The notes beneath the pieces are model-generated. The model was not told the DNA's origin. It saw only the letters and a program-made list of their open reading frames with translations, and did no database searches. DNA of 64,000 nucleotides from a virus (Duplodnaviria; Caudoviricetes): the IMG/VR virus record IMGVR_UViG_3300042363_001075, positions 5,141 to 69,140 of that record; one strand, written 5' to 3'. Each line of letters opens with the position of its first letter. The first letter of the stretch is position 1. Of the stretch, positions 10,579 through 31,776 are shown in pieces. Made by a program: the position numbers and the translations under genes.

Positions 10579-11082
10579 TTATCTTAAACATGGATTTAAG
10601 TTGGGAGTATTAGTCGGAGTTGGTGTTCTATACATACTTGGAGAAGGTATAACGGGAAGTGGATAATTTCCACAAGGATTATATGATGGTGTTACTGTTG
10701 GCGTACTTATTGGAGTTCCTGTTGGTGTTGAGGTATATGTAGGGGTAGGTGTTGGTGAAGGCAAACTACATTGATCGTATGTTGGTGTAGGTGTTGGTGT
10801 AGGTGTCGGAGTTGAGGTTTGTGTTTTTGTTGGTGTCAATGTTGGTGTATTTGTCGGTGTTGGTCGAGGCACATTTAAATAATATGTACACTTAGAATCC
10901 AAAACAAAAATTGTATAAGATCCGTAAATTTCTCTTGGTGGTATTAATAAAGAAGGATCAAAAGTGAAAGGTAATGTTACTTCACCTAAATTTATTGATA
11001 CATCACTATTATCAGGTTTGAACATTACTTGAGCTAACTCACCTTCGTTCAAAAAACTATTAATTATAATTTCATTTGCCAT
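10579..11082 (-). CDS. Pro/Thr-rich putative virion protein
   Basis: ~70 aa globular N-terminus, then [13 protein letters not shown] repeats with spaced Cys. Confidence 0.7.
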   Translation of the reverse strand: MANEIIINSFLNEGELAQVMFKPDNSDVSINLGEVTLPFTFDPSLLIPPREIYGSYTIFVLDSKCTYYLNVPRPTPTNTPTLTPTKTQTSTPTPTPTPTPTYDQCSLPSPTPTPTYTSTPTGTPISTPTVTPSYNPCGNYPLPVIPSPSMYRTPTPTNTPNLNPCLR

Positions 11083-14664: not shown

Positions 14665-14665
14665 A

Positions 14666-15348: not shown

Positions 15349-15349
15349 T

Positions 15350-15970: not shown

Positions 15971-15990
15971 TATTTTACAATAGATTTATG

Positions 15991-16018: not shown

Positions 16019-16065
16019 GTTGATTATTCTGAAATTTTGGCTTATAATTTTACAAAGAAAAAATT

Positions 16066-17277
16066 ATGTCAAAAATTAATGTATTAGTCCTACCCTCGGA
16101 CACAAGTGGTGTTGGTAAATTCAGATCAGTATCCCCACACATAAAACTTCAAAATTTATACCCTGATGATTTTCATGTCGATATTGATTACGCACCAAAG
16201 TTAAATGATGTAAATTTTTGGAAAAAATACCAAATCGTTCATTTTCATAGAAGTGTTGGTCAAATGGAGAATTGCCCAAGTTTAATAAAAAATCTAAGGA
16301 ATATGGGTATTGTTGTGATTGCCGATATCGATGATTATTGGTTACCAACTAAAGAACACCCAATTCACCAATTGATTCTCGAAAATAAAATGAATTTAAA
16401 AATTATTGAGAATCTTAAAGCAGCAAGTTATGTAACAACAACAACAGAACTATTTGCAAATGAAATAAGAAAGTTCAACAAGAATGTTATAGTTTTACCT
16501 AACGCAATTGACCCAACTGAAGGTCAGTTTACTCAACCTACATTACCATCAGATAAAGTCAGAGTTGGTTGGTTAGGAGGATCATCACACTTACATGATT
16601 TAAAATTATTAGATGGTATGGTAAGTAAGTTACAACCTATCCAAGACAAGTTACAATTTTATGTTTGTGGTTTTGATATCAGAGGAACTGTTACTGAATT
16701 GAACAAACAAACGGGAGAACAAAAACAACGACCAATAAAACCTGAGGAAACTGTTTGGGTTAGATATGAAGAAATTTTTACAAATAACTATAAAATTGTT
16801 TCACCTGAGTACAAACAATTTTTAGATAACTTTGAGGATTCTGTTTATCCTAATTTGAATAACGAAAATTATGTTCGAGTTTGGACAAGACCTGTAGACT
16901 CTTACGCAAGAAACTACTCAAACTTTGATATCTCTTTAGCGCCAATTAAAAACCATGTTTTCAACAGAATGAAATCTCAGCTCAAAGTTATTGAGGCAGG
17001 TTTTTACAAAAAAGCTTTAATCGCATCAAATGTTGGTCCTTACACAATTGATTTAAAACACGCAATGAAAAATGGTGAATTCACTGACGGTAACGCACTT
17101 TTAGTTGATGAACCAAAAAATCATAGTGATTGGGCTAAGTACATTAAAAAATTGGTTGACAATCCAAATATGATTGTTGATCTTGGTGAAAGACTATATG
17201 AAACTGTTAGTCACAAATACCATTTAGACACTGTAACACACGAAAGAGCATCATTTTATAAATCCTTAATTAAATAA
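16066..17277 (+). CDS. GT-B fold glycosyltransferase (GT4-like)
   Basis: VGWLGGSSHLHDL, FDISLAPI...KSQLKVIEAG...IASNVGPY. Confidence 0.8.
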   Translation: MSKINVLVLPSDTSGVGKFRSVSPHIKLQNLYPDDFHVDIDYAPKLNDVNFWKKYQIVHFHRSVGQMENCPSLIKNLRNMGIVVIADIDDYWLPTKEHPIHQLILENKMNLKIIENLKAASYVTTTTELFANEIRKFNKNVIVLPNAIDPTEGQFTQPTLPSDKVRVGWLGGSSHLHDLKLLDGMVSKLQPIQDKLQFYVCGFDIRGTVTELNKQTGEQKQRPIKPEETVWVRYEEIFTNNYKIVSPEYKQFLDNFEDSVYPNLNNENYVRVWTRPVDSYARNYSNFDISLAPIKNHVFNRMKSQLKVIEAGFYKKALIASNVGPYTIDLKHAMKNGEFTDGNALLVDEPKNHSDWAKYIKKLVDNPNMIVDLGERLYETVSHKYHLDTVTHERASFYKSLIK

Positions 17278-17280
17278 GAC

Positions 17281-18006
17281 ATGATTAATATCCCAATTAC
17301 AAAAATTTTATTTTTAGATATAGAGACAGTTGGTAGTTGTAAAGACTATCAAACTTGTATAAAATCAAATCCTCGAGTTGCAGAACAGTTTGACAAGTAT
17401 TTTGATTGGTTTTTAAAAAGATTCCCTGAAGATAAAGAATGGGCTGAAGATAGGTCAACAGAAGAACACATGGACATGGTGTTTAGATCAAGAGCGGCAC
17501 TTGTTCCTGAATTCGCAAAAATTGTTTGTGTTTCTATGGCCTTTGTTTTAGATAATGGTGAAACAAAAAAACAAACATTCTCAGGTGATGATGAACACAA
17601 ATTACTTAGCGAGGTTAGAGATCTTTTAAATCGTTGTCATAAATTAGATTTTTATCTTTGTGGTCATAACCTTAAAAACTTTGATATTCCTATGTTGGCA
17701 AAACGAATGATTATCAACGGAATTATGCCATCAAAGATTCTCCCTTCATACGATACAAAACCTTGGGAGATTAAAGCAATTGATACAAAAGAAATTTGGC
17801 AGTACGGAGCATACACGGCTATTGGGTCTTTGGATTTGATGTGTGCTTGTTTGGACATCCCAACCCCAAAAGATGGTGAAGTTAATGGAGGTATGGTTCA
17901 TAGTGCTTATTGGGAACAAAGTAGGTTAAAAGAAATTTCTGAATACTGTGAAAGAGATGTTGAGGTATTAATTGACGCAATAATAAAATTAAAAAGTTTA
18001 AAATGA
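17281..18006 (+). CDS. DEDD 3'-5' exonuclease (PolB-exonuclease-like, stand-alone)
   Basis: FLDIET, GHNLKNFDIPML and YCERDV motifs. Confidence 0.85.
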   Translation: MINIPITKILFLDIETVGSCKDYQTCIKSNPRVAEQFDKYFDWFLKRFPEDKEWAEDRSTEEHMDMVFRSRAALVPEFAKIVCVSMAFVLDNGETKKQTFSGDDEHKLLSEVRDLLNRCHKLDFYLCGHNLKNFDIPMLAKRMIINGIMPSKILPSYDTKPWEIKAIDTKEIWQYGAYTAIGSLDLMCACLDIPTPKDGEVNGGMVHSAYWEQSRLKEISEYCERDVEVLIDAIIKLKSLK

Positions 18007-18605
18007 TAGAAAACGATAAAAATCCCGAAGAGGAGAATTTTGATGACTTATTAGAAATGTTAAATTCTTTTGATGGTGACTCGCCAACAGATTATGATAA
18101 ATTTATGGACGCATTGGGTATTGATTTTGATGATTTAGATTCTGAAGCAATAAGAGATGCATATCTTTTAGATTTAGAATTTAGCAAATCTCATCCTGAT
18201 GCAATGGACCCGATTCACGCTTATCCAACAGATTCAGGATTTGATCTCTATTCTACAGAAGATATTTGGATTCACTCTTTTGATAGAAAGTTAATCCCAA
18301 CAGGATTACATTTTAACATTCCTGATGGATATGAATTACAAGTAAGATCAAAAAGTGGATTAGCACTTAAACAAGGATTAATGGTATTAAATTCACCAGG
18401 AACAATCGATCAAGGATATACAGGAGAAATTCAAGTAATTGTATTCAATACAACCAAAGAAAATGTTAAAATAAAAAAAGGACAAAAAATTGCTCAAGGT
18501 GTTTTGTGTCCAGTTGTTTCAGGAAAATGGATCAGAATGAAACAAACAGAAAAAATAAAAGAGAAGGATAGAAACGATAACGGTTTCGGGAGTACAGGAG
18601 TATGA
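18003..18605 (+). CDS. dut: dUTPase with acidic N-terminal extension
   Basis: DSGFDL, RSKSGLA, PGTIDQGYTGEI and RNDNGFGSTG motifs. Confidence 0.95.
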   Translation: MIENDKNPEEENFDDLLEMLNSFDGDSPTDYDKFMDALGIDFDDLDSEAIRDAYLLDLEFSKSHPDAMDPIHAYPTDSGFDLYSTEDIWIHSFDRKLIPTGLHFNIPDGYELQVRSKSGLALKQGLMVLNSPGTIDQGYTGEIQVIVFNTTKENVKIKKGQKIAQGVLCPVVSGKWIRMKQTEKIKEKDRNDNGFGSTGV

Positions 18606-20011
18606 TTACAATAGGATTTTCAACAAGAAGTCATAACCAAGAATACATTGATTATTTACAAAAAACATCAATGTATAAAGATGTGGAGGTTATTGAAAAA
18701 ATTAATAACGGTTATAAGTCATTGTCTGAAGTTTACAACGAAATTTTAAGTGAGTCAAAATATGATGTTGTTGTTTTATGTCATGACGATTTAGAGTTTG
18801 ATACAAAGAATTGGGGTGATAAAGTATTGAAGCACATAACAAAAAATCCTGAGTACGGAATCTTTGGTTTAGCCGGTTCAAAATATTTAGATTCAACTGC
18901 CAAATGGTGGGAAGTAAACTCTACAATGTATGGGATTGTTAATCACAAACATCAAGGAAAAAAATGGACAAGCGTGTACTCAAAAGATTTGGGTAATAAA
19001 GTTGAAGATGTTGTTTTAGTTGATGGTCTTTTTATTGTTGTTAATAAAAAGAAAATTAAACATAATTTTGACGAAAGTATTAAAGGCTTCCATTTTTATG
19101 ATCTTGGATTTTGTTTACCAAACTTTGTTGATGGAGTTAAAGTTGGTGTAATGTTCGATGTTAGAGTGACTCACCTCTCAATTGGACAAACTAATCAACA
19201 ATGGGAAGATAACAGAATTGAGTTTTCTAAAAGATACGAAAATGTTTTACCTATAGATATAAACGATAAAACTCAAAGTGAGACATTTATTTTCATTCAT
19301 GACCAAGATTTAATTTTAGATTTTGAATCGAAGAAAAAATTCTCAAACTTATATAAATACACATATGTTTTTTTAGGTCAAAGACCGACTGATAAACTAT
19401 CAGATATACCAAACATATTAATTGCAAGAAATTATGAGTATAATTTAGAATCATACCCACTATTTACTTCATATACAGGTTGGTATTTCTTATGGAAGAA
19501 TAATTTCATCAAAACAAATTATATTAACCTATTAGAATACGATGTAATTTTGGATAAAAATTTTGATCAAATACATACTAAATTTTACAATGAGAGAGTT
19601 GAAATGATCGGGTATGTCCCTTTTCCAATAAACCATTTTCAATTTGTAATGAATCCTGAATGGAATGAACACATATTACCAATCATTCAAAATAAAAACA
19701 AAGTGGATTTAAAAAAATATTTTACTAAAATTTCTGAGAACAACCCAAATGCGGTTTGGTCATCAACATCAAACACCACATTTAGGTCTGACATATTTGA
19801 TCAATACATGAAGTGGTTCGAACCGATTGGAGATCAAATAAAAGAAACCAAAACCTGTGGTCACGCACATGAAAGGTCCATAACTTTTTTCACTCATTTG
19901 ATGAGTAAAAAAATGTTAATAACAAATAATGTGTTAAAACATTTACAACTAGACTCACACAAGACTCAAGGTCATAAAGTAAACTTAGAAGAAAGTTTAA
20001 ACAAATTGTAA
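18602..20011 (+). CDS. GT-A glycosyltransferase-like domain fused to a second domain
   Basis: YNEIL...VVLCHDDLEF, VVLVDGLFI, FHFYDLGFCL; C-terminal LLEYDVIL and GHAHERSI. Confidence 0.7.
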   Translation: MITIGFSTRSHNQEYIDYLQKTSMYKDVEVIEKINNGYKSLSEVYNEILSESKYDVVVLCHDDLEFDTKNWGDKVLKHITKNPEYGIFGLAGSKYLDSTAKWWEVNSTMYGIVNHKHQGKKWTSVYSKDLGNKVEDVVLVDGLFIVVNKKKIKHNFDESIKGFHFYDLGFCLPNFVDGVKVGVMFDVRVTHLSIGQTNQQWEDNRIEFSKRYENVLPIDINDKTQSETFIFIHDQDLILDFESKKKFSNLYKYTYVFLGQRPTDKLSDIPNILIARNYEYNLESYPLFTSYTGWYFLWKNNFIKTNYINLLEYDVILDKNFDQIHTKFYNERVEMIGYVPFPINHFQFVMNPEWNEHILPIIQNKNKVDLKKYFTKISENNPNAVWSSTSNTTFRSDIFDQYMKWFEPIGDQIKETKTCGHAHERSITFFTHLMSKKMLITNNVLKHLQLDSHKTQGHKVNLEESLNKL

Positions 20012-20015
20012 AAAA

Positions 20016-20675
20016 ATGAATTATTTAAGTTTTAGTTTATGGGGAGATAAACCATTTTACAATGTAGGGGCAATCAGAAACTCCGAACTGATAAAATCAG
20101 TTTACCCAAATTGGAAAATGATTTTATATTATGACAATACGACCCCTCAAGAAACAATACAAGAATTATTAAAAAATGATGTCCTGTGTTTTGATGTCAC
20201 CGAAAAAAACATTTATGGTCCTTTTTGGAGATTTTACGCGGCAGACTTACCTGACGCTGAATATGTCTGTTTTAGAGATTGCGATTCAAGAATATCAGAA
20301 CGAGAATATTTGGCAGTAGTCGAATGGATTAATAGTGGAAAAACTCTTCATGTAATGAGAGATCATCCAGCACATAGAATTCCTTATGGAAATAATGAGA
20401 TGGGAATTCTTGCCGGTATGTGGGGTTTAAAAACAAAAAAAATATTCCTTACTGAAATGATAAATGATTTTTGTAAAAACAATCAACCAACATATGGTGC
20501 GGATCAAAAATTTTTAAAACACATCTATAAAACATTTAAAAATGATAAATGTACCCATGATGAATTTTTTGAAAAAAACCCATTCCCAACTAAAAGACAA
20601 AACGGAAGATTCATTGGTGAAAGAATAAACATCGATGAAAAACCATTAACTAATGATCATTTAATTTTATTATGA
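20016..20675 (+). CDS. Putative glycosyltransferase (GT-A-like)
   Basis: SFSLWGDKPFY, FRDCDSR (DxD), RDHPAH, ILAGMWG, YGADQKFL. Confidence 0.55.
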   Translation: MNYLSFSLWGDKPFYNVGAIRNSELIKSVYPNWKMILYYDNTTPQETIQELLKNDVLCFDVTEKNIYGPFWRFYAADLPDAEYVCFRDCDSRISEREYLAVVEWINSGKTLHVMRDHPAHRIPYGNNEMGILAGMWGLKTKKIFLTEMINDFCKNNQPTYGADQKFLKHIYKTFKNDKCTHDEFFEKNPFPTKRQNGRFIGERINIDEKPLTNDHLILL

Positions 20676-21427
20676 AAATAGACTACGCAATAATGAGTAG
20701 CGATTCAAACCCTACTTATTTAGATTTTTGGCCAATAGTTTCCAAAATTTGGAAAGAACACTTTAACATTACTCCGGTCTTGTATTATATAGACAATAAC
20801 CAAGATGTGGAAATAGATGAAACTTACGGTATTGTTATTAAAATGTTACCTGAACCAAAAGTACCAATATACCTTCAATGCCTTTGGGTAAGATATTGGT
20901 GTTTTACTCAATATCCTGATGATGTATGTATTATTTCAGACATTGATATGATTCCGCTATCTAAAAAGTATTTTGTTGATAATATATCCGATATAAATGA
21001 TGAAAAATATGTTCACCTAAATCCTTGTTATGCATCTTATGGTACACTCCCGTCTTGTTACCATGTTTCAAAAGGTAAAACATTTACTAAAATGTTAGAA
21101 TTGGATATGGATTGGCCTACAAGTATAAATAAATTACATTCATTAAATTTAGGTAGAGACCCAGGTGGTCATTTAAGTGGAAAAAAACAATGGTTTGCGG
21201 ATGAAAAATTTTCTTCTGACAAAATATTTGAATACAAAAAAAATAATATGGATGATGTAATATTTTTACACAGGGAAGGTGGTCAAAACGGATTTAGAAT
21301 AGATAGGTTAAGGTGGTCTTATGATCCATCTTTGGTAAAAAGTGGTTACTATTACGATTCCCATAGTGTAAGACCTTATTTGGAATATAAGGATAAAATT
21401 GATAATCTTGTTAATTTGGTTTTATGA
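20672..21427 (+). CDS. Putative glycosyltransferase
   Basis: YLDFWPIVSKIW, CIISDIDMIPL (DxD), YYDSHSVRPY. Confidence 0.55.
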   Translation: MKIDYAIMSSDSNPTYLDFWPIVSKIWKEHFNITPVLYYIDNNQDVEIDETYGIVIKMLPEPKVPIYLQCLWVRYWCFTQYPDDVCIISDIDMIPLSKKYFVDNISDINDEKYVHLNPCYASYGTLPSCYHVSKGKTFTKMLELDMDWPTSINKLHSLNLGRDPGGHLSGKKQWFADEKFSSDKIFEYKKNNMDDVIFLHREGGQNGFRIDRLRWSYDPSLVKSGYYYDSHSVRPYLEYKDKIDNLVNLVL

Positions 21428-22059
21428 AATTGATTATTTTAGTTTTATCTTACGACGATAATGGAATTTATACTAAATTTTACAAATCACAAATGGAAAC
21501 TTGGGATAGTGTTAATATTGGTAATGTTTCAACATATTATTACTTTGGTAACCATGAATGTGATGAAATGTGTGGTAATAAAATATTAACGAGTATAAGT
21601 GAGAGTTTTGAAAACTGCGGTCACAAGTTATTAAATTCCTTGGAATTAATTAAAGATTTAGACTATGATTTTATCTTCAGGACTAATTCTAGTTCTTATG
21701 TTGATAAATCTATTTTATATGACAATTTATCTAAAATAAAAGATCTTAATTACTATGCCGGCATTAATGGTAATTTTAGAAATGTTAGTTACGCCTCAGG
21801 ATCAGGTTTTGTAATGACAAAAAATTTAGTAAATCTTATTTTAGAAAATAAATCAAATTTTGAACATGATTTAATTGATGATGTTGCAGTTGGCAAACTT
21901 GTTGGTGATTTAGGAGTCCCTTTATATTCCACAGAAAGGTTTGATATCAATAATAATAACCATATCGCTAAAAATCATTATCATTATAGAATTAAAACCA
22001 ATAATAGAGAAAACGATATATCAACTATGTATAAAATACATGAAATAAAAACAAAATAA
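21424..22059 (+). CDS. GT31/Fringe-like glycosyltransferase
   Basis: FIFRTNSSSYVD, YASGSGFVMT, IDDVAVG. Confidence 0.6.
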   Translation: MKLIILVLSYDDNGIYTKFYKSQMETWDSVNIGNVSTYYYFGNHECDEMCGNKILTSISESFENCGHKLLNSLELIKDLDYDFIFRTNSSSYVDKSILYDNLSKIKDLNYYAGINGNFRNVSYASGSGFVMTKNLVNLILENKSNFEHDLIDDVAVGKLVGDLGVPLYSTERFDINNNNHIAKNHYHYRIKTNNRENDISTMYKIHEIKTK

Positions 22060-22067
22060 CTTTATAC

Positions 22068-22730
22068 ATGATTAAGATAGCAATAGCAACAAACAAAAAT
22101 TTCAGCCAATTTAGTTTACCTATAATTTTGAAATCTCTCATTGATTGTCAAATAAACTTAGACGACATTATCGTATTCCATGCCGGATATGATGAAAGAG
22201 AAGAAAAAATTATTGACGGAATAAAAAATATTTTTTTAAATCACAACTCATTCGAGTATAGTCCTCTTATAGATATTTGTGAAAACAATTTAGAATCTGA
22301 GTATTGGTTTTTAATTCATGATACTTGTAAAGTTGGTCCTCGATTTAAGGAATTATTGTATAATATACCTGAAGATAAACCCGAAAAACTTGCTTTAAAA
22401 TCTAGACCAGCAATGTCTATAGGTTTATACAAATATAGTTATTTAAAGAGTGTTGAACAAAAAATTTTCACGATAAAGAACACCGACTACTCCCATGAGT
22501 CAATGATGAAGTGGAAACTTTGGGGTGTACCAAATGAAGACTTTATATTGTGGATGACCGAACCTAACCCAAAATTTTGTAACAACAGAGATGAATGGAG
22601 TGTAGTTGATAATGAAAATTGGTACGGTACAAATACCACAAGAAGAACTGAATACTATCCATCTTTAGATATCTATAAAAATAAATCTAATTGGGGTCAG
22701 ACAGGAAATAATATGGTCCTACACATTTAA
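22068..22730 (+). CDS. Hypothetical protein, possibly glycosyltransferase-like
   Basis: In glycan operon; NSFEYSPL and YWFLIHDTC motifs. Confidence 0.45.
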   Translation: MIKIAIATNKNFSQFSLPIILKSLIDCQINLDDIIVFHAGYDEREEKIIDGIKNIFLNHNSFEYSPLIDICENNLESEYWFLIHDTCKVGPRFKELLYNIPEDKPEKLALKSRPAMSIGLYKYSYLKSVEQKIFTIKNTDYSHESMMKWKLWGVPNEDFILWMTEPNPKFCNNRDEWSVVDNENWYGTNTTRRTEYYPSLDIYKNKSNWGQTGNNMVLHI

Positions 22731-22732
22731 GT

Positions 22733-23719
22733 ATGAAAATAGCAATAATTGGTGGTGGATGGGTTGGATGTCATTTAACAAAAAATTTAATAGATCTTCA
22801 TCAAGTAGATTTATTCGAAAAGAACGATCTTCTTTTTTTGGAGACTTCGTCTAAAAATCAAAATAGGTTACATTACGGGTTTCATTATTCTAGAAATTAC
22901 AAAACAAGAAATTTGTGTAAAATAACATTCGATAGGTTTATAGATGAATATGGGTTTATTGTTTCAGAAATAGAAAAAAATTATTACTGTATACCTAAAA
23001 AAGAATCATTAATTGATTTCCAAACCTACATAAAAATTTTCGAGGATTACGACTTAACTATAGTGGATAATAATTTTACTGAAATTGAGGGGTGTTTAAA
23101 CACAAAAGAAAAACACATCGATTACAAAAAATCTAAATTATACTTCAATGAGATATTAAAAAATAATTTTATTAAAAAAGAAATCAAAGAATCAGACTTA
23201 GTCAGTCTAAAAAAAGATTATGATTTAGTTATAAATTGTACAAATAATTTTTTAAATTCTTCTTCATCGGATGATCATTTTTATGAAATAACAATATCTT
23301 TTTTGTACCGTAAAATAAACGAAATTGAATTTGACGCATTAACTTTGGTCGACGGTAATTTATTTTCAATATACCCTTATTCTGAAAATTTATTTACAGT
23401 TACTGATGTTGAGTTTACACCAATAAAAAAAGTTTTAGATTCAAATTCTTTGGGTGATGAGGTTAAAAAAATTAAAGAATCTGATCATTCCGAAAGGAGG
23501 AAAAAAATTGAGTCTAAGATTAAAAAATATTACAAAAATTTTAATCAAAATTTTGTTTACGATTCTTTTTTTATATCTATTAAATCTAAAGTTGTTTCAG
23601 AGTCGGATGATAGAAGTCCTATAATTCGTTCTGAAGATAACTTGATAAATGTCTTTACAGGTAAAATTCAAGGAGTTTATTTTGTTGAGGATTTTGTTAA
23701 AAATATTTTAAACACATGA
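22733..23719 (+). CDS. FAD-dependent oxidoreductase
   Basis: N-terminal IAIIGGGWVG...LFEK Rossmann fold; SSKNQNRLHYGFHY. Confidence 0.8.
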   Translation: MKIAIIGGGWVGCHLTKNLIDLHQVDLFEKNDLLFLETSSKNQNRLHYGFHYSRNYKTRNLCKITFDRFIDEYGFIVSEIEKNYYCIPKKESLIDFQTYIKIFEDYDLTIVDNNFTEIEGCLNTKEKHIDYKKSKLYFNEILKNNFIKKEIKESDLVSLKKDYDLVINCTNNFLNSSSSDDHFYEITISFLYRKINEIEFDALTLVDGNLFSIYPYSENLFTVTDVEFTPIKKVLDSNSLGDEVKKIKESDHSERRKKIESKIKKYYKNFNQNFVYDSFFISIKSKVVSESDDRSPIIRSEDNLINVFTGKIQGVYFVEDFVKNILNT

Positions 23720-24483
23720 AAGTATTAATAGGTCATACAGGGTTGGTTGGATCAACTTTAACCGATAAAATTAAATTTGATTTTTTATTCAACACTAAAA
23801 ATATAGAAACATTCAATAACTACAATTTTGATGGTTATGATTTGTATCTGTCTTGTTTACCAGCAACAAAGTGGATGGTAAATAAAAACATTACCTCAGA
23901 TTTAAATAACATGATTTCTATCATCGATATAATATCTAAATTTAATTATAATAAAATTTATCTAATATCGACTATTGATGTTTATTGTGATTCGCCTTTG
24001 GAGTCTGATGAAAACTACAATCCTAATTTTTCAGATCTTAATTATGGGTCAAATAGATTGTTGTTTGAAAAATTAATTAAAAATTACTTAACATACGAAA
24101 AAATCTATACTTTTAGATTACCAGCAGTTTTTAATAAAAAAATTAAAAAAAATGTAATTTACGATTTGATAAATAATAATAATGTCGATCAAATCAATGT
24201 TAATTCAAAATACCAATGGTACAATTTAGATTACCTTGATGAGGACATTAATTTTTTAATTAGTACTTTTCCAAACGAAACAATCTTTAATTTATTTACA
24301 GAACCAATTGACACAAAAGAAATTGTCGATCTTTTTGAAAACCATAAAGATAAAGTAGTATATAATAAAAATTCTGTAGTTTACGATTTTAAAACAAAGC
24401 ATTTTGTGTCGGGTTATTTAAAAAATAAAACTGAAATATTTGATGAAATAAAAAAATTTGTAAATGAATTTAGCGGTAAGTAA
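23716..24483 (+). CDS. NAD-dependent sugar epimerase/dehydratase-like protein
   Basis: LIGHTGLVGS, LISTIDVY, YGSNR, FRLPAVF. Confidence 0.7.
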   Translation: MKVLIGHTGLVGSTLTDKIKFDFLFNTKNIETFNNYNFDGYDLYLSCLPATKWMVNKNITSDLNNMISIIDIISKFNYNKIYLISTIDVYCDSPLESDENYNPNFSDLNYGSNRLLFEKLIKNYLTYEKIYTFRLPAVFNKKIKKNVIYDLINNNNVDQINVNSKYQWYNLDYLDEDINFLISTFPNETIFNLFTEPIDTKEIVDLFENHKDKVVYNKNSVVYDFKTKHFVSGYLKNKTEIFDEIKKFVNEFSGK

Positions 24484-25219
24484 TTTAGCTTGGGAATCCA
24501 AAGATTTATCAAGTGTATTGAAAATATTAAAAGATCAAAAAATTAAGAACATAGAGGGTGTTATCAGTAAAATTAGTCCATGGGATGATTTAAGTGATGA
24601 CAAGTTGAGGGAATTCAGGTTAATACTAAGTGATTATGAAATAAAGATCCCATCTTTACAGTCAATTTTTTTTGGTACTCAGATCTCTTCTCTTAATGAA
24701 GAAAAATTAGTTTTAGAACATTTTGAAAAATTAAAACACATATCCAAAGTACTTGGTGTATCCACCTTAGTATTTGGTTCACCAAACCTTAGAAAAAAAA
24801 GTAACTCAAATTTTGTTGAAACATTTAAAAAAATTGATGAGGTATTTGATGGAGAAAACATAACATTATGTATTGAACCTAACACTAAAATTTATGGTGG
24901 TGATTTTTTCTTTACAGTCAATGAAATTATTAACTTTATTAATTTGGGTAAGTTTAAAAATATTAAAACTATGATCGACACTCATAATATAATATTAGAA
25001 GACCAAGACCCTATTCGTATACTTAGAAACAATTTTGATTACATTTCTCACATACACATATCTGAAAAAAAATTATCTCCGATTGAAGATGTAAAATTTC
25101 ATGAGGACTTTTCATCGGAACTTAAACAACTCAAATATGATAAAATAATAACCTATGAGGTTTTACCTTGTGATAATATAAAAAAAGAAATAAAATTATT
25201 TACAGAAATTTATGGATAA
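24464..25219 (+). CDS. Sugar-phosphate isomerase/epimerase (xylose isomerase-like TIM barrel)
   Basis: LVFGSPNLR, LCIEPN, MIDTHN, HIHISE, ITYE metal-binding motifs. Confidence 0.8.
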   Translation: MNLAVSNLAWESKDLSSVLKILKDQKIKNIEGVISKISPWDDLSDDKLREFRLILSDYEIKIPSLQSIFFGTQISSLNEEKLVLEHFEKLKHISKVLGVSTLVFGSPNLRKKSNSNFVETFKKIDEVFDGENITLCIEPNTKIYGGDFFFTVNEIINFINLGKFKNIKTMIDTHNIILEDQDPIRILRNNFDYISHIHISEKKLSPIEDVKFHEDFSSELKQLKYDKIITYEVLPCDNIKKEIKLFTEIYG

Positions 25220-26126
25220 AATTTTAATTACAGGAGGAAATGGTTTGGTTGGTTCTGAATTCAAAGGAGACCAATACCTCAAACCTAGTTCTAAAGAATA
25301 TGATCTTACAGATAAAGATCAAACCTATCGTTTAATGTTAAAAGGTTTTGACGGTATAATACATTGTGCTGCGAAAGTTGGTGGTGTTGGTGCCAACATG
25401 AATTATAAAGGTGAGTTTTTTTACGATAACATTATGATCAACACAAATGTTATTGAGGGTGCAAGACTATCAGGAGTTAAAAACTTAGTCGCATTTTTAT
25501 CAACCTGTATTTTTCCAAATGAGGTAGATTACCCATTAACCGAAAAAAAAATTCACTTAGGACCACCTCATTTTTCTAACGACGCATATGCGTACGCCAA
25601 AAGAATGACGGACATTCAAATACGATCATATAATGAACAATATGGTTTAAATTATAAATCTGTAATACCTACAAACATTTATGGTCCAAATGACAACTAT
25701 GATATTCAGAATGGTCATGTCGTTCCTTCATTAATCCACAAATGTTTTTTAGCTAGAGAAAATAAAACACCACTTACTATTTGGGGTTCTGGAACTCCAC
25801 TTAGAGAGTTTATTTTCAGTAAAGATGTCGCAAAACTTACGGAATGGGTACTACACAATTATAAAGAAAATGAACCAATAATACTGTCTACATCGGAAGA
25901 AATTTCAATAAAAGATGTTGTAGGTATGATAGTAGAATTAATGAACTTCAAAGAAGATGTTTTATTTGATTCTACAAAACCAGATGGCCAATTTAGGAAA
26001 CCTTCGGATAATTCCAAAATAAAAAACTATCTACCTAACTTTAAGTTCACACCCATGTACGAAGGGTTAAAAGAAACTATTGAGTATTTCGAAAAAAATT
26101 ATAATCTTATAAGAAAAAATGGATAA
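25212..26126 (+). CDS. fcl: GDP-L-fucose synthase
   Basis: ITGGNGLVGS, HCAAKVGG, FLSTCIFP, YAYAKR, PTNIYGP, WGSGTPLREF, KPDGQFRK. Confidence 0.92.
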   Translation: MDKILITGGNGLVGSEFKGDQYLKPSSKEYDLTDKDQTYRLMLKGFDGIIHCAAKVGGVGANMNYKGEFFYDNIMINTNVIEGARLSGVKNLVAFLSTCIFPNEVDYPLTEKKIHLGPPHFSNDAYAYAKRMTDIQIRSYNEQYGLNYKSVIPTNIYGPNDNYDIQNGHVVPSLIHKCFLARENKTPLTIWGSGTPLREFIFSKDVAKLTEWVLHNYKENEPIILSTSEEISIKDVVGMIVELMNFKEDVLFDSTKPDGQFRKPSDNSKIKNYLPNFKFTPMYEGLKETIEYFEKNYNLIRKNG

Positions 26127-27105
26127 AAAAACTGCACTAATTACGGGTATCAACGGACAAGACGGATCATATCTTGCCGAACTACTTTTGGATAAAGGTT
26201 ATGAAGTTTGGGGAACAGTTAAAAGAAACTCCGTGTCAGAAACGCAATCCACAAGAATTGAACATCTCAGGGAAACAAACAAATTAAATTTAGAATACGC
26301 CGACCTTACAGATATGGGATCTTTAATTAGTATCCTGTCTAAAGTTCAACCCGATGAGGTTTATAATTTGGCGGCACAATCTCATGTTAGAATTAGTTTT
26401 GATCAACCAATATATACCGCAAATGTTACAGGTGTTGGCACATTAAATCTATTAGAGGCAATTAGAATTGTATCACCACATTCAAAAATATATCAAGCAT
26501 CTTCATCAGAAATGTTTGGTAACTCGATTGATGAGGATGGATATCAAAGAGAAACCACCCAAATGAACCCTGTCTCACCATATGGGTGTGCAAAAGTGTT
26601 CTCATATAATATTTGTAGAAACTACAGAAATGCATACAATATGAAAATATGGAACGGTATTCTGTTTAACCACGAATCACCAAGACGAGGAACTAACTTT
26701 GTAACAAACAAAGTTGTAAAAGCTGCTGTCAGAATTAGTTTAGGTTTACAAGAAAAACTACACATTGGAAATTTAGAGGCAACAAGAGATTGGGGTCACG
26801 CTAAGGATTATGTGTACGCAATGTGGTTGATGTTACAATCTGACAAACCTGACGATTATGTGTGTGCAACTGGAGTATCACACACAGTTCAAGATTTATG
26901 TAGTTATGTGTTTAGTTCATTAGGTTTGGATTATTTAGATCACATCGTAATTGATGAAAAACATTTTAGGCCAGAGGAGCTTGAGAATTTGAAGGGTGAT
27001 TCCTCCAAAATAAAAAAAGAACTATTATGGCAACCCGAATATACATTCGAGACCATGTTAGATGAAATGATAAATTATTGGTTAGAATATTATGGAAAGA
27101 AGTAA
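26119..27105 (+). CDS. gmd: GDP-mannose 4,6-dehydratase
   Basis: ALITGINGQDGSYLAE, YNLAAQSHV, YQASSSEMFG, SPYGCAK, LFNHESPRRG, RDWGHAKDYV. Confidence 0.97.
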   Translation: MDKKTALITGINGQDGSYLAELLLDKGYEVWGTVKRNSVSETQSTRIEHLRETNKLNLEYADLTDMGSLISILSKVQPDEVYNLAAQSHVRISFDQPIYTANVTGVGTLNLLEAIRIVSPHSKIYQASSSEMFGNSIDEDGYQRETTQMNPVSPYGCAKVFSYNICRNYRNAYNMKIWNGILFNHESPRRGTNFVTNKVVKAAVRISLGLQEKLHIGNLEATRDWGHAKDYVYAMWLMLQSDKPDDYVCATGVSHTVQDLCSYVFSSLGLDYLDHIVIDEKHFRPEELENLKGDSSKIKKELLWQPEYTFETMLDEMINYWLEYYGKK

Positions 27106-27538
27106 AAAAGTAGTGGGGATCACTTGTTCAACATTTGATCTTCTACACGCAGGTCACATTATAATGTTACAAGAGTGTAAAAAATATTGCGACTATTTAA
27201 TATGCGCACTTCAAAGTGACCCAACTATAGATAGAAAAGAAAAAAACGCCCCGATACAATCATTGGTGGAGAGATATATACAACTTGACGCGGTTGAATA
27301 TGTGGACAAAATAATTCCTTACAACACTGAACAAGAATTGGAAACAATATTTGCTTCTATGGATTTAGATGTGAGAATTATTGGTGAAGAATATAAAGAT
27401 AAAGATTTCACAGCAAAAAGAGTTTGTGAAAAAAGAGGAATTAAACTGATTTACAATAAAAGAGATCACGACTTTTCCACAAGCAGTTTAAGAAAAAGGG
27501 TTTATGAAGAGGAATCCGCTAAAAGATTTGTAAAATAA
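27092..27538 (+). CDS. Glycerol-3-phosphate cytidylyltransferase-like (TagD family)
   Basis: CSTFDLLHAGH (HxGH), ERYIQL, RDHDFSTSSLR. Confidence 0.85.
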   Translation: MERSKKVVGITCSTFDLLHAGHIIMLQECKKYCDYLICALQSDPTIDRKEKNAPIQSLVERYIQLDAVEYVDKIIPYNTEQELETIFASMDLDVRIIGEEYKDKDFTAKRVCEKRGIKLIYNKRDHDFSTSSLRKRVYEEESAKRFVK

Positions 27539-27540
27539 AT

Positions 27541-28272
27541 ATGACAAGAAGAAAGCCACAACCAACCGAGGAACCTTATGTTCCGATTAATTCAAAACGA
27601 GATATAATCTCACAAGTAGTTAAGAAAAGACCAAAAAGTAAATTTCTTACAGAGAATCAAAAAATTTATGCCGAGACATTATTAAACAATCAAATAACAA
27701 TTTGTTCAGGTCCTGCCGGTGTTGGTAAAAGTTATATCGCAATGAAAACGGCTGTAGATCTTTTACTCGATGATGGTAATGGGTATGATAAAATTATTAT
27801 AGTAAGACCAGCGGTTGAGGCCGAAGAAAAATTAGGAGCGTTACCAGGAAACTTAGAAGAAAAATTAGATCCTTATATTTTCCCATCTTATTACCTTTTA
27901 AATAAAATTATTGGTAAGGAAGCTAGAGAAAAATTAAAAGATGCTGAAATCATCGAGGTGTTTGCTTTGGCGTATATGAGAGGTATGACAATTGACAACT
28001 CTATTTTGATTTTTGAGGAAGCTCAAAATGCAACTCCTAAACAAATGAAATTATTACTAACAAGAATTGGTACAAGTACTAAATTTTTTATTTCGGGCGA
28101 TATTGAACAAACAGATAGATATAAAGACAAAAAACAATCAGGTCTTTACGACGCACTAATTAGATTTAACAATATTCCAGGAATTGGTGTTTTTGAATTT
28201 GGTGATAAAGATGGTGTACGAAATCCTATAATCACAAAAATTTTACAAAAGTATGACGAAGATAGGGATTGA
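27541..28272 (+). CDS. phoH: PhoH-family ATPase
   Basis: GPAGVGKSY, RPAVEAEEKLGALPG, AYMRGMT, EEAQN, LTRIG, GDIEQTD. Confidence 0.93.
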   Translation: MTRRKPQPTEEPYVPINSKRDIISQVVKKRPKSKFLTENQKIYAETLLNNQITICSGPAGVGKSYIAMKTAVDLLLDDGNGYDKIIIVRPAVEAEEKLGALPGNLEEKLDPYIFPSYYLLNKIIGKEAREKLKDAEIIEVFALAYMRGMTIDNSILIFEEAQNATPKQMKLLLTRIGTSTKFFISGDIEQTDRYKDKKQSGLYDALIRFNNIPGIGVFEFGDKDGVRNPIITKILQKYDEDRD

Positions 28273-28918
28273 TGTTAATGGTGTTTTAAGAGATACAATT
28301 GGTAAGTTTGAGCAACTTTATACTAAACACTTAGTTGAGAAAGACGACAAAGAATTTCTTAACGCTACTTATCGATTAGATTTAAATGGGAATCCAATTT
28401 TAATTGAAAATAAAATTGATGACTTTGACTATAAAAAAATCTCTGAGGTTACGACTTTAAAATTAGACGATCATTTCACTTTTAAAAATGAAGATGAATT
28501 GTTCAGTTTTATATATGAGGAATATGCAATGGAGTTATTTGGTCACGCACCGTCAACCGAAATGACCACCTTCAACACACTAAACGATTTTTACCATGAA
28601 AATCGAGATAACAATGAATTATTAATCGTTTCAAATGAAATCGGTAAATCAAAACCGTCTACTTTATTCTTTCTTTCAAAGTTTGGGTGTCTATTAGAAA
28701 AGGTTGTTTTTTTTAGTGAAGTAACTAAAGATGATATGTGGAAACAAGTGGACATTTTACTTACGGCAAATCCCTCTTTATTATTAGAAAAACATGATGA
28801 TAAAATTGTTATAAAGTTTGAGACAACTTACAATAAACACATCGATTCGGAATACACAATTTTATCTCTTTCCGAATTGAGTCAAATAATTAATAAAATT
28901 AAAGAAAATGCTATTTAG
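28253..28918 (+). CDS. HAD-like (5'-nucleotidase-like) protein
   Basis: IGIDVNGVLRD resembles HAD motif I, with DxD changed to DxN. Confidence 0.5.
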   Translation: MTKIGIDVNGVLRDTIGKFEQLYTKHLVEKDDKEFLNATYRLDLNGNPILIENKIDDFDYKKISEVTTLKLDDHFTFKNEDELFSFIYEEYAMELFGHAPSTEMTTFNTLNDFYHENRDNNELLIVSNEIGKSKPSTLFFLSKFGCLLEKVVFFSEVTKDDMWKQVDILLTANPSLLLEKHDDKIVIKFETTYNKHIDSEYTILSLSELSQIINKIKENAI

Positions 28919-29162
28919 TACATTTGGGGATAATTACTATATCGACTTAGATAAATTAGAAAAAGAAATTGAGTTATCTACTACGGGGGAAACACATTAT
29001 CATTTGGTTAAGTATGAACTTTACAAAATGATGATAGAGACTATTTTAACCGAAGATGAACCTGTTGACGAGAAGTTAGGACCTAAAAACAGTGAATTAA
29101 CTGTTCCGTTTAAAATTTCATTTAACACATTAAGAGTTAAAAACATAATAAACAAAATATAA
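28908..29162 (+). CDS. Hypothetical protein
   Basis: 84 aa ORF in tightly overlapping operon. Confidence 0.65.
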   Translation: MLFSTFGDNYYIDLDKLEKEIELSTTGETHYHLVKYELYKMMIETILTEDEPVDEKLGPKNSELTVPFKISFNTLRVKNIINKI

Positions 29163-29168
29163 AAAAAT

Positions 29169-30227
29169 ATGAGTACGGAAAACTACGAAAAGTTACAGAA
29201 ATCAATAAGTAACATGAATGAGAAACTCTCAAGAATTTACTTTTTGGTCCAAGATACTAAAGGAAACGCAAAAGCATCAATTAAGTACATTTATGACATG
29301 GCACTTACTTTAAAAAATGCAGGATACAACGCAATAATCTTACATGAAAAACCTGAGTATTTTGGGGTATCATCTTGGTTGGGCGAAGAATACATGTCAA
29401 AACTTGATCACAGATCAATCGAAGGGACAAGTCTTGAAATTTCTCCAGACGATTTAATTATTATTCCTGAAATTTATGGATTTGTTATGGAACAAATTAC
29501 TAAACTTCCTTGTGGTAAAATTGTTTTAAGTCAGGCTTTTGACCATATGTTTGAGACCTTACAACCAGGTCAATCATGGCCACAATTAGGATTCTACAAA
29601 TGTATTACAACATCAAACAAACAAAAAGAATATATCGAATCAGTAATGAGAAGTGTTTCAGTTGATGTTATTGAACCGTTCATTTCTGAAAATTTTCAAA
29701 AAAGCAAGTTCCCACCAAAAACAATTGTAAGTATTCACACTCGTGATCATAGAGATACAACTAATTTAATTAAAAGTTTTTACATTAAATTTCCACAATA
29801 CAGATGGATTACATTTAGAGACCTTAGAGGACTTTCTCAAGAAGAATTCTCTGAAGCAATGAAAGAAAGTTTTATCTCTATTTGGGTTGACCAAGCAAGT
29901 TCATATGGAACTTTTCCTTTAGAATCTATGAAAATGGGAATACCTGTTTTAGGTTTAGTACCTGATATGACACCTTCTTGGATGACCGAAGATAACGGTC
30001 TATGGGTAAATAATAAAACAATAATCGTTGATGTCCTTTCCGATTTTATTCAAAATTGGTTAGAAGATAATATCAATCCTACATTATTTGAACAAATGGA
30101 AAAAACAGTGTCAGAGATTCAAACAAAAGAACAGTTTGAGGAAAACACAATCACCTTGTTTTCAAAAATGTTTGAGACAAGATTAGCTTCTTTTGAAGAT
30201 CAACTTTCTAAATTTGAAACAGTATAA
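29169..30227 (+). CDS. GT-B-like glycosyltransferase
   Basis: DLIIIPEI; C-terminal SSYGTFPLESMKMGIPVLG resembles the GT-B nucleotide-binding signature. Confidence 0.6.
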   Translation: MSTENYEKLQKSISNMNEKLSRIYFLVQDTKGNAKASIKYIYDMALTLKNAGYNAIILHEKPEYFGVSSWLGEEYMSKLDHRSIEGTSLEISPDDLIIIPEIYGFVMEQITKLPCGKIVLSQAFDHMFETLQPGQSWPQLGFYKCITTSNKQKEYIESVMRSVSVDVIEPFISENFQKSKFPPKTIVSIHTRDHRDTTNLIKSFYIKFPQYRWITFRDLRGLSQEEFSEAMKESFISIWVDQASSYGTFPLESMKMGIPVLGLVPDMTPSWMTEDNGLWVNNKTIIVDVLSDFIQNWLEDNINPTLFEQMEKTVSEIQTKEQFEENTITLFSKMFETRLASFEDQLSKFETV

Positions 30228-30229
30228 TT

Positions 30230-31033
30230 ATGAGTAACAATAAAATATCGGTGGTATTACCCATCAAGTCAGGAAAAGCAATTGGATTCGAAGATTTTTT
30301 TAAAAGATCTATTGAGTCAGTAAAAAATCAAAAGGACTTTTTACAGGAGTTAATTATTGTACACGGAATTGAGGAATATTTGTCTACTTTTCTTTCTTCA
30401 TTTGATTTTGAAGGATTGAATGTTCGTTTAATCGAATGGTCGGATTCACCAAGTTTCGCTAAACAAGTTAACCATGGGGTTGAGATTTCAGATTCTAATT
30501 GGTGTTCAATATTAGAATTTGACGATGAGTATTCAAATATTTGGTTTAAAAACGCAACTAACTATATGGATATTTATAAAGATGTAGATGTATTTCTACC
30601 TATAGTTGTTGATGTAGATGATAAGTTAGTTTTTGCAGGTTTTACAAATGAGGCAACATTCGCCGCAAATGTTTCGTCGGAAATGGGAATTTTAACAAAC
30701 GAAACTTTACAAACATTCCAAAATTTCCAAATATCAGGAATGGTTTTTAGTAAAGAAAAGTTTTTAGAAATGGGTGGTTTAAAATCAAATTTAAAACTCA
30801 CTTTTGGGTATGAATTATTTTTAAGATTGACATATAACTCAACTAAAATAATGACTATACCTAAGATTGGTTATAAACACATGAATTTGCGTGAGGGATC
30901 AATTTTTTGGAACTATAAAAATGGTGAAGATAAAATGTCCCAAGATGAGGCAAAGTTTTGGATAGATTCCGCAAAAAAAGAATATTTCTACAACAATGAG
31001 AGAGAAATAAAATATGAACCTCAAGAAATTTAA
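30230..31033 (+). CDS. GT2-family glycosyltransferase
   Basis: ISVVLPI, SIESVKNQ, QVNHGV...WCSILEFDD, FLEMGGL. Confidence 0.7.
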   Translation: MSNNKISVVLPIKSGKAIGFEDFFKRSIESVKNQKDFLQELIIVHGIEEYLSTFLSSFDFEGLNVRLIEWSDSPSFAKQVNHGVEISDSNWCSILEFDDEYSNIWFKNATNYMDIYKDVDVFLPIVVDVDDKLVFAGFTNEATFAANVSSEMGILTNETLQTFQNFQISGMVFSKEKFLEMGGLKSNLKLTFGYELFLRLTYNSTKIMTIPKIGYKHMNLREGSIFWNYKNGEDKMSQDEAKFWIDSAKKEYFYNNEREIKYEPQEI

Positions 31034-31776
31034 TGCTAGAGAATGAAACTGAATCGACATTAGAAAAGAAAAAGAAAGGTAGAAAACCAAAAACAAATAA
31101 TTATTTTGATGAGAGAGAAGAAAGGGCCGTAAGGTTGTTTTTAGTAGCAGAAACCTACGAAGAAAAAAACAAAATATATAACGAGTTTTTAAAAGAACCT
31201 TTAGACAAAATGATATCTTCAATCATCAGAAGATATAAATTGTACAGGAAAGACATGAACTATGAAGAAATACACATAGATACCCATTCTTTTCTCATGA
31301 CCAAAATTGATAAGTTTAAGCCTTCTAAAGAAAAAAAGGCTTATTCTTATTTTGGTACTATTTGTAAAAATTATTTGATGGGTCAAATAATGAAAGATCA
31401 AAAAGAAATGAATAGAAAAATTTCTTATGAAGATATTTCTGCTGATTTATCAAACCGACCAGACTTTTCTTATACGATAGAAAATGATGATTTAAGTTCA
31501 GAGACAATAATAAAAAAGTTTTTAGAAAAACTAAAAACTAACCTTGAGGAGTCAATCGACAACGAACACGAACAAAAACTTGGATCCGCAATTTATGATT
31601 TGTTTGATAATTACAATTTAATTTTTCCTGATAGTAACAATAACAAATTTAATAAAAACATAATTCTTTTTGAATTAAGGGAGATGACTAACTTATCAAC
31701 TAAAGAAATTAGAACCTCAATCAAAAAATTTAAAAAATTGTATTTTGATTTAGTTCAAGAATTATTAAAAAATTAA
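31033..31776 (+). CDS. Putative phage RNA polymerase sigma factor (gp55-like)
   Basis: KIDKFKPSKEKKAYSYFGTICKNYL resembles sigma region 2; C-terminal HTH-like ELREMTNLSTKEIRTSI. Confidence 0.6.
   Translation: MLENETESTLEKKKKGRKPKTNNYFDEREERAVRLFLVAETYEEKNKIYNEFLKEPLDKMISSIIRRYKLYRKDMNYEEIHIDTHSFLMTKIDKFKPSKEKKAYSYFGTICKNYLMGQIMKDQKEMNRKISYEDISADLSNRPDFSYTIENDDLSSETIIKKFLEKLKTNLEESIDNEHEQKLGSAIYDLFDNYNLIFPDSNNNKFNKNIILFELREMTNLSTKEIRTSIKKFKKLYFDLVQELLKN

Follow-up and report, generated by a model that had tools for sequence, protein, structure and literature searches.

A core-and-cassette glycosyltransferase operon in a T4-related jumbo phage and its candidate role in glycosylating the phage's own fibre-type proteins

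The window analyzed here is a 64-kb stretch of the 69-kb contig of an uncultured tailed virus (IMG/VR record IMGVR_UViG_3300042363_001075; completeness of 21% according to CheckV). It contains a cluster of glycosyltransferase (GT) and sugar-metabolism genes, which the initial annotation of this DNA interpreted as a system for glycosylating the fibres of the phage. The source is a T4-related jumbo phage: the structural genes in the window code for a gp23-type major head protein (phrog_138), a portal protein, a large terminase and a T4-type prohead protease, and the closest capsid genes are those of huge uncultured phages, Microcystis phage Mel-JY01 and the Flavobacterium "immuto" phages. The window also encodes DnaK (859 bits) and a ClpB/C-like ATPase. 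As the initial annotation had proposed, the GT and sugar genes lie in one closely packed operon: positions 16066-31776, hereafter the GT island, hold 20 co-oriented open reading frames (ORFs) on the + strand with intergenic gaps of -20 to +8 nt.

About eight GTs had originally been counted in this operon, of which five can be assigned by family and one by fold, while the other two, 20016 and 20672 (genes are designated by their start positions), stand only as leads. Four of the assigned enzymes belong to a core that is conserved across the lineage. The first, 16066 (16066..17277), is a GT-B protein of the GT4-like type (phrog_7162 glycosyltransferase, 7e-48) whose lineage-wide homologues share 52-95% identity. 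Its AF2 model (pLDDT 82.5) displays a generic GT4 fold, with MshA, sucrose-phosphate synthase and BshA as the best PDB structure matches; we set this fold aside as a guide to the acceptor class, as it cannot discriminate between protein, lipid and DNA. The second, 18602 (18602..20011), is a two-domain GT (Glyco_tranf_2_5, 7e-24). The third, 29169 (29169..30227), is a GT-B enzyme whose family profile matches a single solved structure, AmGGT (PDB 8xsg, 7.5e-14), which is homologous to the Agt enzymes of Actinobacillus, whose activity is to elongate glucose on glycopeptides. This match spans only residues 128-336, chiefly the donor-binding half, and hence the acceptor type cannot be read from it. 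The fourth, 30230 (30230..31033), is a GT2 enzyme (1e-5).

The remaining four GTs or candidate GTs lie in a variable cassette. The product of 21424 (21424..22059) is GT31-like (Galactosyl_T, 3.4e-7) and carries a DDVAVG motif. The product of 22068 (22068..22730) belongs to a family with no Pfam match, whose 286 homologues are all unnamed or labeled hypothetical. An AF2 model built from 22 sequences (pLDDT 87.6) recovered, among the matches listed in the VIA wide search (Z of 12.4 to 9.0 over residues 1-207), almost exclusively GT-A glycosyltransferases with a few nucleotidyltransferases of the same fold (GlmU, MobA), and the model aligns with A64R of PBCV-1 (Z 9.4) and R655 of Mimivirus (Z 9.0). 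The predicted structure thus confirms 22068, by fold, as a GT-A glycosyltransferase. A probable GT-A enzyme is suggested for 20016 (20016..20675) by an invariant R-D-C-D-S-R stretch, with its DxD motif, after a hydrophobic strand and by an Atlas look-alike of the GT8/Nucleotid_trans type (0.92), both of which we treat as leads; its family appears to be virus-restricted. In 20672 (20672..21427), which matched no family, a DxD motif after a hydrophobic strand points to a possible, unverified GT-A protein. PDB sequence searches with 20016, 20672 and 22068, and with the family profiles of 16066 and 20016, returned nothing useful. No GT of the window, including the six assigned by family or fold, contains a hydrophobic 19-mer with a Kyte-Doolittle mean of 1.6 or more; thus, the original observation that these virus-encoded enzymes have no membrane anchor stands.

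Between the GTs lies a set of genes for the supply and remodeling of sugars. The assignment of 26119 (26119..27105) as a GDP-mannose 4,6-dehydratase (Gmd) is solid, given a full-length match to PF16363 (410 bits) and a score for TIGR01472 (404 bits) slightly below the cut-off of 415. It is preceded by an Fcl-like NDP-sugar epimerase/reductase (25212..26126), for which GDP-L-fucose synthase is the best NCBIfam match at 230 bits against an equivalog cut-off of 500; judging by this score, its product could be a GDP-6-deoxyhexose other than GDP-L-fucose. The next gene, 27092 (27092..27538), encodes a nucleotidyltransferase of the cytidylyltransferase fold that matches RfaE domain II (1e-20) and TagD (1.5e-18) almost equally, both below the cut-offs. 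A TagD assignment, which would lead to phosphoglycerol, is therefore not favored over an RfaE-type heptose adenylyltransferase, and the proposed phosphoglycerol decoration loses its specific basis. A further trio had been read as a rare-sugar pathway, and three putative sugar-tailoring enzymes are indeed present: 22733 (22733-23719) looks like an oxidoreductase, 23716 (23716-24483) like an SDR-like reductase and 24464 (24464-25219) like a xylose-isomerase-like TIM-barrel epimerase or isomerase. The family match of 22733 is restricted to its FAD/NAD-binding Rossmann N-terminus, and 23716 matches no family and is recognized by a GxxGxxG start.

The chemistry of the final glycan is less readily predicted, and fucosylation, methylation and phosphoglycerol decoration, all three of which had been suggested, are guesses. 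Fucosylation is plausible in light of Gmd and the Fcl-like enzyme, but no fucosyltransferase of the GT11, GT10 or another recognizable family was found among the ORFs of the window; one of its unassigned GT-A proteins could fill this role. A GT11 cluster, in turn, is the most widespread family in the cassettes of relatives (26/39). The idea of methylation finds no counterpart in the operon, which has no methyltransferase. The sole methyltransferase found in the window, of the FkbM family (62953-63564, - strand; PF05050, 1.2e-18), is encoded 32 kb away at the far right, adjoining the tmRNA region.

Five further genes of the operon, which the initial annotation had not listed, belong to its conserved flanks. 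These encode a PolB-exo-like 3'-5' exonuclease that is no glycan enzyme (17281..18006; PF10108, 3e-12), a dUTPase (18003..18605; 4e-27), PhoH (27541-28272), a HAD/NT5C-like phosphatase (28253-28918) and an 84-aa ORF (28908-29162). The last gene of the unit (31033..31776) is weakly similar to late sigma factors of the T4 gp55 type (phrog_234, 8e-4).

To place the island in its lineage, we compared it against available phage genomes. A megablast search of 50,697 phage records gave no match, and tblastn returned nothing for 29169 and a single, uncultured match for 18602; hence, there is no cultured relative with experimental data. In contrast to these records, IMG/VR holds at least 300 contigs related to this lineage. 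The contig fits the description of the "moraphages," large aquatic phages with Bacteroidota as predicted hosts, for which the pertinent passages of the source report DnaK and four core GT orthogroups of unknown role (PMC12619734). The likeness, which lies in the jumbo T4-related genome, DnaK and the four core GTs, is one of description, and those passages make no mention of a cassette, GT60 or acceptors. A scan of IMG/VR with 18602 yielded 41 loci, and a second scan with the non-GT exonuclease, from which the best 80 of 300 relatives were kept, brought the total to about 120 related loci.

These loci share a strikingly constant frame around a variable interior. The left frame consists of a homologue of the fibre-like gene 11083 on the opposite strand, five small genes, the GT-B 16066, the exonuclease, the dUTPase and an 18602-type GT; the right frame consists of PhoH, the HAD phosphatase, the 84-aa ORF, the GT-B 29169, the GT2 30230 and the sigma-like gene. 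Both frames are retained in every locus with covered flanks, with 0 to 13 genes in the block between them. Conservation of the four core GTs (16066, 18602, 29169 and 30230) thus extends throughout the lineage, even to relatives without any cassette, and all the exonuclease-fetched loci retain 16066 and an 18602-type GT where that flank is covered. In two loci an extra gene for a protein of about 300 aa (L002:6511-7425; L008:6569-7471) lies directly ahead of a shortened 16066 homologue.

The blocks of 39 loci together encode 374 proteins in 117 clusters. Among the best 25 of 94 Pfam families in the blocks are GT2 (16 clusters), GT11, GT47, NDP-sugar epimerases and dehydratases, DegT aminotransferases, hexapeptide acyltransferases and the FkbM, TylF and CmcI sugar methyltransferases. 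None of the 374 proteins has two or more hydrophobic segments, and the unit of the window likewise encodes no multi-pass membrane protein. Further, no flippase, polymerase, ligase, transporter or initiating phosphoglycosyl transferase was found in the ORFs of the window or in these best 25 of 94 families; the membrane export proteins on which a Wzx/Wzy- or ABC-dependent O-antigen or capsule locus depends are missing from both.

The ten genes in the block of the window itself (20016-27538) form a mosaic: about 10 loci have 20016 in common with it, another set has 20672 and 21424, and a third has gmd and fcl, while the four-gene module 22068-24464 recurs only in L142, with all four genes together. 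Exchange of such cassettes is captured in the relative L067, which is 93% identical in DNA to the window over positions 11246-18599. This identity ends abruptly at the boundary between the dUTPase and GT genes (L067:7355) and gives way to patches of 73% at 19938-20679 and 82% over gmd. We interpret this break, which falls exactly at the junction, as a recent cassette exchange with a precise left breakpoint. In 18602 itself, the N-terminal ~220 aa are conserved lineage-wide, and the C-terminal half is unrelated in many relatives (total lengths of 469-709 aa), which indicates that the cassette boundary passes through this gene.

A further enzyme of the lineage bears directly on the function of the island. 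All eight long relatives searched (G001-G008), two of which are near-complete (G005, 97%; G006, 93%), encode a GT60 protein recognized by PF11397 (E of 1e-55 to 1e-62), a family found in none of 14 control bacteria. On the ORFs themselves the profile matches at full length with 237 bits (G005, ORF at 59085-60332) and 228 bits against a cut-off of 21, and the D-S-H residues, the DxH metal-binding motif, are invariant in the eight sequences in spite of pairwise identities of 38-90%. Characterized GT60 enzymes are polypeptide alpha-GlcNAc transferases that act on Thr of mucin-like proteins (PMC8724618, PMC9472816).

The placement of the GT60 gene is equally suggestive. G003, G004 and G005 present the same succession of GT island, 11083 homologue, Pro/Thr-rich or collagen-like proteins and GT60. 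The sole Pro/Thr-rich gene among the 262 of G001 is the neighbor of GT60; in G008 GT60 is flanked by a collagen-like gene and a Pro/Thr-rich gene; and in G006 it lies 3.6 kb from the gene for a collagen-like protein with an N-terminus that shares 92% identity over 53 aa with the collagen-like giant of the window. The most informative relative is G005 (290.7 kb), which is collinear with the whole window (major capsid protein, 76%; large terminase, 82%). Its 3313-aa giant has the island on one side and, on the other, a 972-aa fusion protein, two ConA-type lectin proteins, a GT9 and the GT60, the last 6.6 kb beyond the giant, where the present contig ends. The fusion is a single ORF (L160:10541-13459, - strand; G005:52541-55459) that joins a GT-B domain (Glycos_transf_1), a GT9 heptosyltransferase-like domain and an FkbM methyltransferase.

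We next consider the proteins that such enzymes might modify. The candidate acceptors described in the initial annotation, two giants rich in G-S/T triplets and several proteins with Pro/Thr tracts, are real. The first giant (2217..10490, - strand) is a proline-poor collagen-like protein of 2757 aa with 854 uninterrupted G-X-Y triplets and 1582 Ser and Thr residues. The second (1..2110, - strand) is truncated by the end of the contig, on which its open frame extends for 2422 aa; PF01391 matches the contig 109 times. The Pro/Thr-rich proteins are the small 10579 (10579..11082, - strand), 37388 (37388..38566, + strand), with about 190 aa of TPTNTPT repeats, and 11083 (11083..13263, - strand), a Cys-rich fibre-like protein that is divergent from the island and carries only a short (PT)n linker. 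About 340 residues are common to the homologues of 11083, whose lengths vary between 549 and 1593 aa and some of which contain extensive TPTNTPT tracts. In its behavior the protein resembles a receptor-binding fibre whose distal part can be exchanged. Of 101 of these homologues, 59 have PT linkers that reach 70%, but some forms of 642-651 aa have none, and the idea of a universal low-complexity acceptor beside the locus was therefore rejected.

The timing of these proteins can be approached through a putative promoter. The motif RTATTTATNA occurs at 17 sites in the window against 4.5 expected, a number reached in none of 100 shuffles; the sites include 13294-13303 (+), 35874-35883 (+), 45131-45140 (-) and 52044-52053 (-). 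Genes for the head, fibres and baseplate, including 13311, 11083, 35895 and 37388, follow it at a distance of 10-25 nt, and near-matches precede the giants. Hence, this is probably the late promoter of the phage. With such boxes ahead of them, the candidate acceptors are late proteins that flank the island, which abuts the late-promoter fibre and baseplate genes. The gene ahead of 35895 and 37388 (34324-35874, + strand) matches no family and has the sequence LGRVRAVP in its N-terminus, which recalls phage baseplate hub or spike proteins of the gpV/gp5 type. Host-type -7 boxes of Bacteroidota (TAnnTTTG) precede dnaK, a peptidase gene and 39127. No late box lies ahead of 16066. Instead, a strong terminator-like hairpin with an 11-bp stem and a T run (15990-16015, +) is followed by a TTGATT-17-TATAAT element (16020-16048, +), from which it appears that the GT operon begins a transcription unit of its own. 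From this non-late promoter the enzymes would be made before their proposed substrates, a timing that is compatible with protein, host-surface and DNA targets alike and discriminates between none of them.

Does the GT system exist for the giants in particular, as the pairing proposed in the initial annotation implies? The core GTs are lineage-wide, whereas only 6 of the 36 distinct relatives that could be assessed have a collagen-like gene next to the locus; the cassettes of these six are of every kind, with gmd present or absent. Likewise, the suggestion that the size of the GT operon would co-occur with repeat proteins is not borne out: in these small, low-power samples, the presence of the collagen gene was associated neither with gmd (2x2 table of 1/1/0/3, p = 0.4) nor with cassette size (4-8 genes in positive and 0-9 in negative loci, complete cassettes only). 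The giants as the reason for the GT system are thus not supported. A related proposal, that glycosylated Thr stabilizes the Pro-poor collagen, draws on a precedent from worm collagen, in which the stabilizing glycosylated Thr is at the Y position; the Thr residues in the triplets of the giant are mostly at X (403) and not at Y (41). The acceptors are probably several late proteins, and the giants of this phage are plausible members of this set.

Taking these observations together, we propose, with somewhat more confidence than doubt, that the phage carries out a cytoplasmic O-glycosylation of its own late fibre-type proteins, which is started by GT60, extended by the core GTs and diversified by the cassette. 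This retains the central idea of the initial annotation, in that a soluble, phage-encoded pathway acting on the phage's own late proteins is the best reading, without the pairing to the giants. The island would be transcribed from its own non-late promoter, such that the enzymes precede the late proteins. Gmd and the Fcl-like enzyme would convert GDP-mannose to a GDP-6-deoxyhexose, probably GDP-L-fucose; 27092 would activate a second sugar-phosphate or a polyol-phosphate; and 22733, 23716 and 24464 would remodel a further sugar. A GT60-type enzyme would then start chains on Thr or Ser in Pro/Thr-rich linkers and possibly also in the collagen-like shafts with their G-S/T triplets. On these, 16066, 18602, 29169 and 30230 would build a conserved inner glycan, to which 20016, 20672, 21424 and 22068 would add a strain-specific outer part. 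Cassette swaps between otherwise near-identical genomes would change the type of the glycan. We favor the phage's own proteins as targets because no export or multi-pass membrane proteins were found in the window or among the 374 cassette proteins, the island abuts late fibre and baseplate genes, and GT60 is found among the fibre genes of the long relatives. The match of the 29169 family to AmGGT/Agt, a family that includes cytoplasmic glycopeptide-extending enzymes, is in keeping with it.

Several observations weigh against this proposal. Glycosylation of virions in this lineage is a prediction from genes. GT60 was not found in the present 69-kb contig; as the contig stops inside the second giant, the region that would match the GT60 of G005 is missing, and it is solely by synteny that we expect the gene just beyond the left end. 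Genes of nucleotide metabolism (exonuclease, dUTPase, PhoH and HAD) are scattered through the island, and these, the lack of a late box and the sigma-like last gene give the unit an early or middle rather than a morphogenetic look. Homologues of 16066 stand alone beside DNA polymerase genes in phAPEC8-like phages, and the structures reported as nearest to the DNA arabinosyltransferases of RB69 and DLP3 are the same PDB entries as those that best match 16066 (PMC13326640). Finally, four of the six low-complexity Ser/Thr/Pro proteins of G005 are far from any GT gene identified, and some relatives with a full island have neither a collagen-like gene nor a PT linker in the neighboring fibre.

Such points leave room for targets other than virion proteins. 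The soluble GTs might alter undecaprenyl-linked intermediates of host lipopolysaccharide (LPS), capsule or O-glycans at the inner face of the membrane, with the host flippases exporting the altered glycan to block superinfection or the re-adsorption of progeny to debris. The enzyme repertoire, with its GT2, GT4, GT11, Gmd/Fcl, DegT, acyl- and methyltransferases, does resemble that of a locus for O-antigen or capsule synthesis, the hypervariability of the cassette would suit a surface antigen, the unit is probably expressed ahead of the late genes, and the "LPS genes" of T4-like cyanophages have traditionally been read in this manner. New repeat-unit chemistries for the host surface would, however, be expected to come with matching export genes: Wzx and Wzy specific for the glycan usually vary along with such cassettes, and membrane proteins are part of the seroconverting modules known from phages. 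As noted above, neither the window nor the 374 cassette proteins yielded any initiating transferase, flippase, polymerase, ligase or multi-pass membrane protein. The presence of a polypeptide O-GT family among the fibre genes of the lineage and, as a lead only, the apparent restriction to viruses of two cassette GT families in the Atlas, that of 20016 being one, also speak against it, and we regard remodeling of the host surface as unlikely.

A more remote alternative is that some or all of the GTs glycosylate hydroxylated bases of the phage DNA, as in T4, RB69 and DLP3, and thereby evade restriction. In T4-like phages DNA is glycosylated by GT-B enzymes, with HAD and nucleotidyltransferase enzymes supplying the sugars (PMC13326640), and phage DNA glycans are diverse (bioRxiv 2023.12.21.572611). 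The interleaving of the GTs with the dUTPase, exonuclease, PhoH and HAD phosphatase in every relative is in keeping with this, as is the adjacency of 16066 homologues to DNA polymerase genes in phAPEC8-like phages. Against it, no enzyme for a hydroxylated-base precursor was found in the contig, which covers 21% of the genome, or in the relatives searched. Five related contigs (~700 kb) yielded no C5-cytosine methyltransferase (PF00145); TET/JBP (PF12851) was not found in them either, a result that carries no weight as the control of this search was also negative. In G001 and G003, the ThyA homologues have the Asn of the dUMP type (PFNIAS) rather than the Asp of the dCMP type, although a dUMP hydroxymethylase may be present; the G003 form (L044; G003:653-2047, - strand) has 482 aa with large insertions relative to the 361-aa form of G001, both with PFNIAS. 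At least eight GTs with deoxy-, amino- and methyl-sugar tailoring far exceed what the mono- to trisaccharides known on DNA would need, and GT60 is a protein O-GT family; DNA hypermodification is hence very improbable. An improbable, if less extreme, variant, which is compatible with glycosylation of the virion, would divide the labor: the cassette and GT60 would serve virion proteins, and 16066, with the exonuclease and dUTPase, would act on DNA or a small molecule, so that two systems would lie side by side in place of one with eight GTs. Two nucleotide-metabolism genes do separate 16066 from the other GTs, and 16066-type GTs occur in Campylobacter phages (tblastn), beside replication genes in the phAPEC8-like phages and alone in the 735-kb phage LR756501, whose context we discarded as a functional clue as it has no related neighbors. 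Yet 16066 is the first gene of the tightly coupled transcription unit that also contains the other GTs, its position beside the island is constant in about 120 loci, and no precursor gene for DNA modification was found.

The proposed O-glycosylation of late phage proteins would be a variant of the virus-encoded virion glycosylation known from mycobacteriophages and giant viruses. In mycobacteriophages, soluble phage GTs, sometimes with methyltransferases, are reported to O-glycosylate the phage's own structural proteins in the host cytoplasm (Freeman et al. 2023, as cited in PMC12619734). Those systems use about 2-4 GTs on the C-terminal tails of capsid and tail-tube subunits, with measured glycans; the present one, which is predicted from genes, has four core GTs, a cassette of 0-13 genes, GT60 in relatives and PT-rich or collagen-like candidate acceptors. 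Chloroviruses and Mimivirus have genes for a GDP-mannose dehydratase and the epimerase/reductase, for numerous soluble GTs of the GT-A and GT-B folds and for sugar methyltransferases, in sets that are specific to each clade, and these enzymes act in the cytoplasm without the ER or Golgi. Autonomous glycosylation by such viruses extends to the PBCV-1 capsid and the Mimivirus fibrils (PMC4691112). The Atlas look-alikes of 20016 and 22068 include clusters from Nucleocytoviricota. Here the virus is a tailed phage of a bacterial host, and the fold matches are generic for GT-A. The protist GT60 enzymes, such as TcOGNT of T. cruzi and pp-alphaGlcNAcT (Gnt1) of Dictyostelium (PMC8724618, PMC9472816), resemble those of the relatives in the full-length PF11397 domain and the D-S-H motif, and the genes of the relatives adjoin those for Thr/Pro-rich proteins similar to mucin-type acceptors. 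They differ in being mostly Golgi enzymes, whereas the predicted phage enzymes would act in the bacterial cytoplasm. The glycosylated DNA of T-even-like phages (glucosyl-hmC in T4; arabinosyl-5hoC in RB69 and DLP3) offers a parallel in its GT-B enzymes with HAD and nucleotidyltransferase genes among those for nucleotide metabolism (PMC13326640); here, no hydroxylated-base synthase was found, GTs and tailoring enzymes are far more numerous, and the lineage encodes a protein O-GT family. With regard to the giants, the exosporium protein BclA of Bacillus is a collagen-like G-X-Thr protein that is heavily O-glycosylated with deoxy-, amino- and methyl-sugars by soluble enzymes. As a bacterial spore protein with Pro in its triplets, it is an analogy only to the giants of the window.

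A bolder extension, which we hold to be possible rather than probable, is that both giants (>5000 residues with about 3000 Ser and Thr) are densely O-glycosylated by GT60 and the island, yielding fibres in a sheath of glycans whose outer sugar is switched when near-identical genomes exchange the cassette. If so, the giants would constitute a "serotype" system of the phage on glycosylated viral collagen, akin to O-antigen variation but borne on the virion.

Virion glycosylation has been demonstrated chemically only for a few mycobacteriophages and giant eukaryotic viruses. If the glycosylation of late fibre-type proteins proposed here is correct, an abundant lineage of jumbo phages would spend more than 15 kb on glycosylating its own fibres, with a kit comprising a mucin-initiating enzyme of the protist type, four core GTs and a cassette whose variation recalls that of O-antigen loci. 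This would bear on the folding, protease resistance and host recognition of phage fibres and on the actual role of the "LPS genes" of large phages, and would provide a natural toolbox of soluble GTs active in the bacterial cytoplasm. On the question, unsettled in the literature, of what the four core GTs do in these phages, it would also yield a set of testable predictions.

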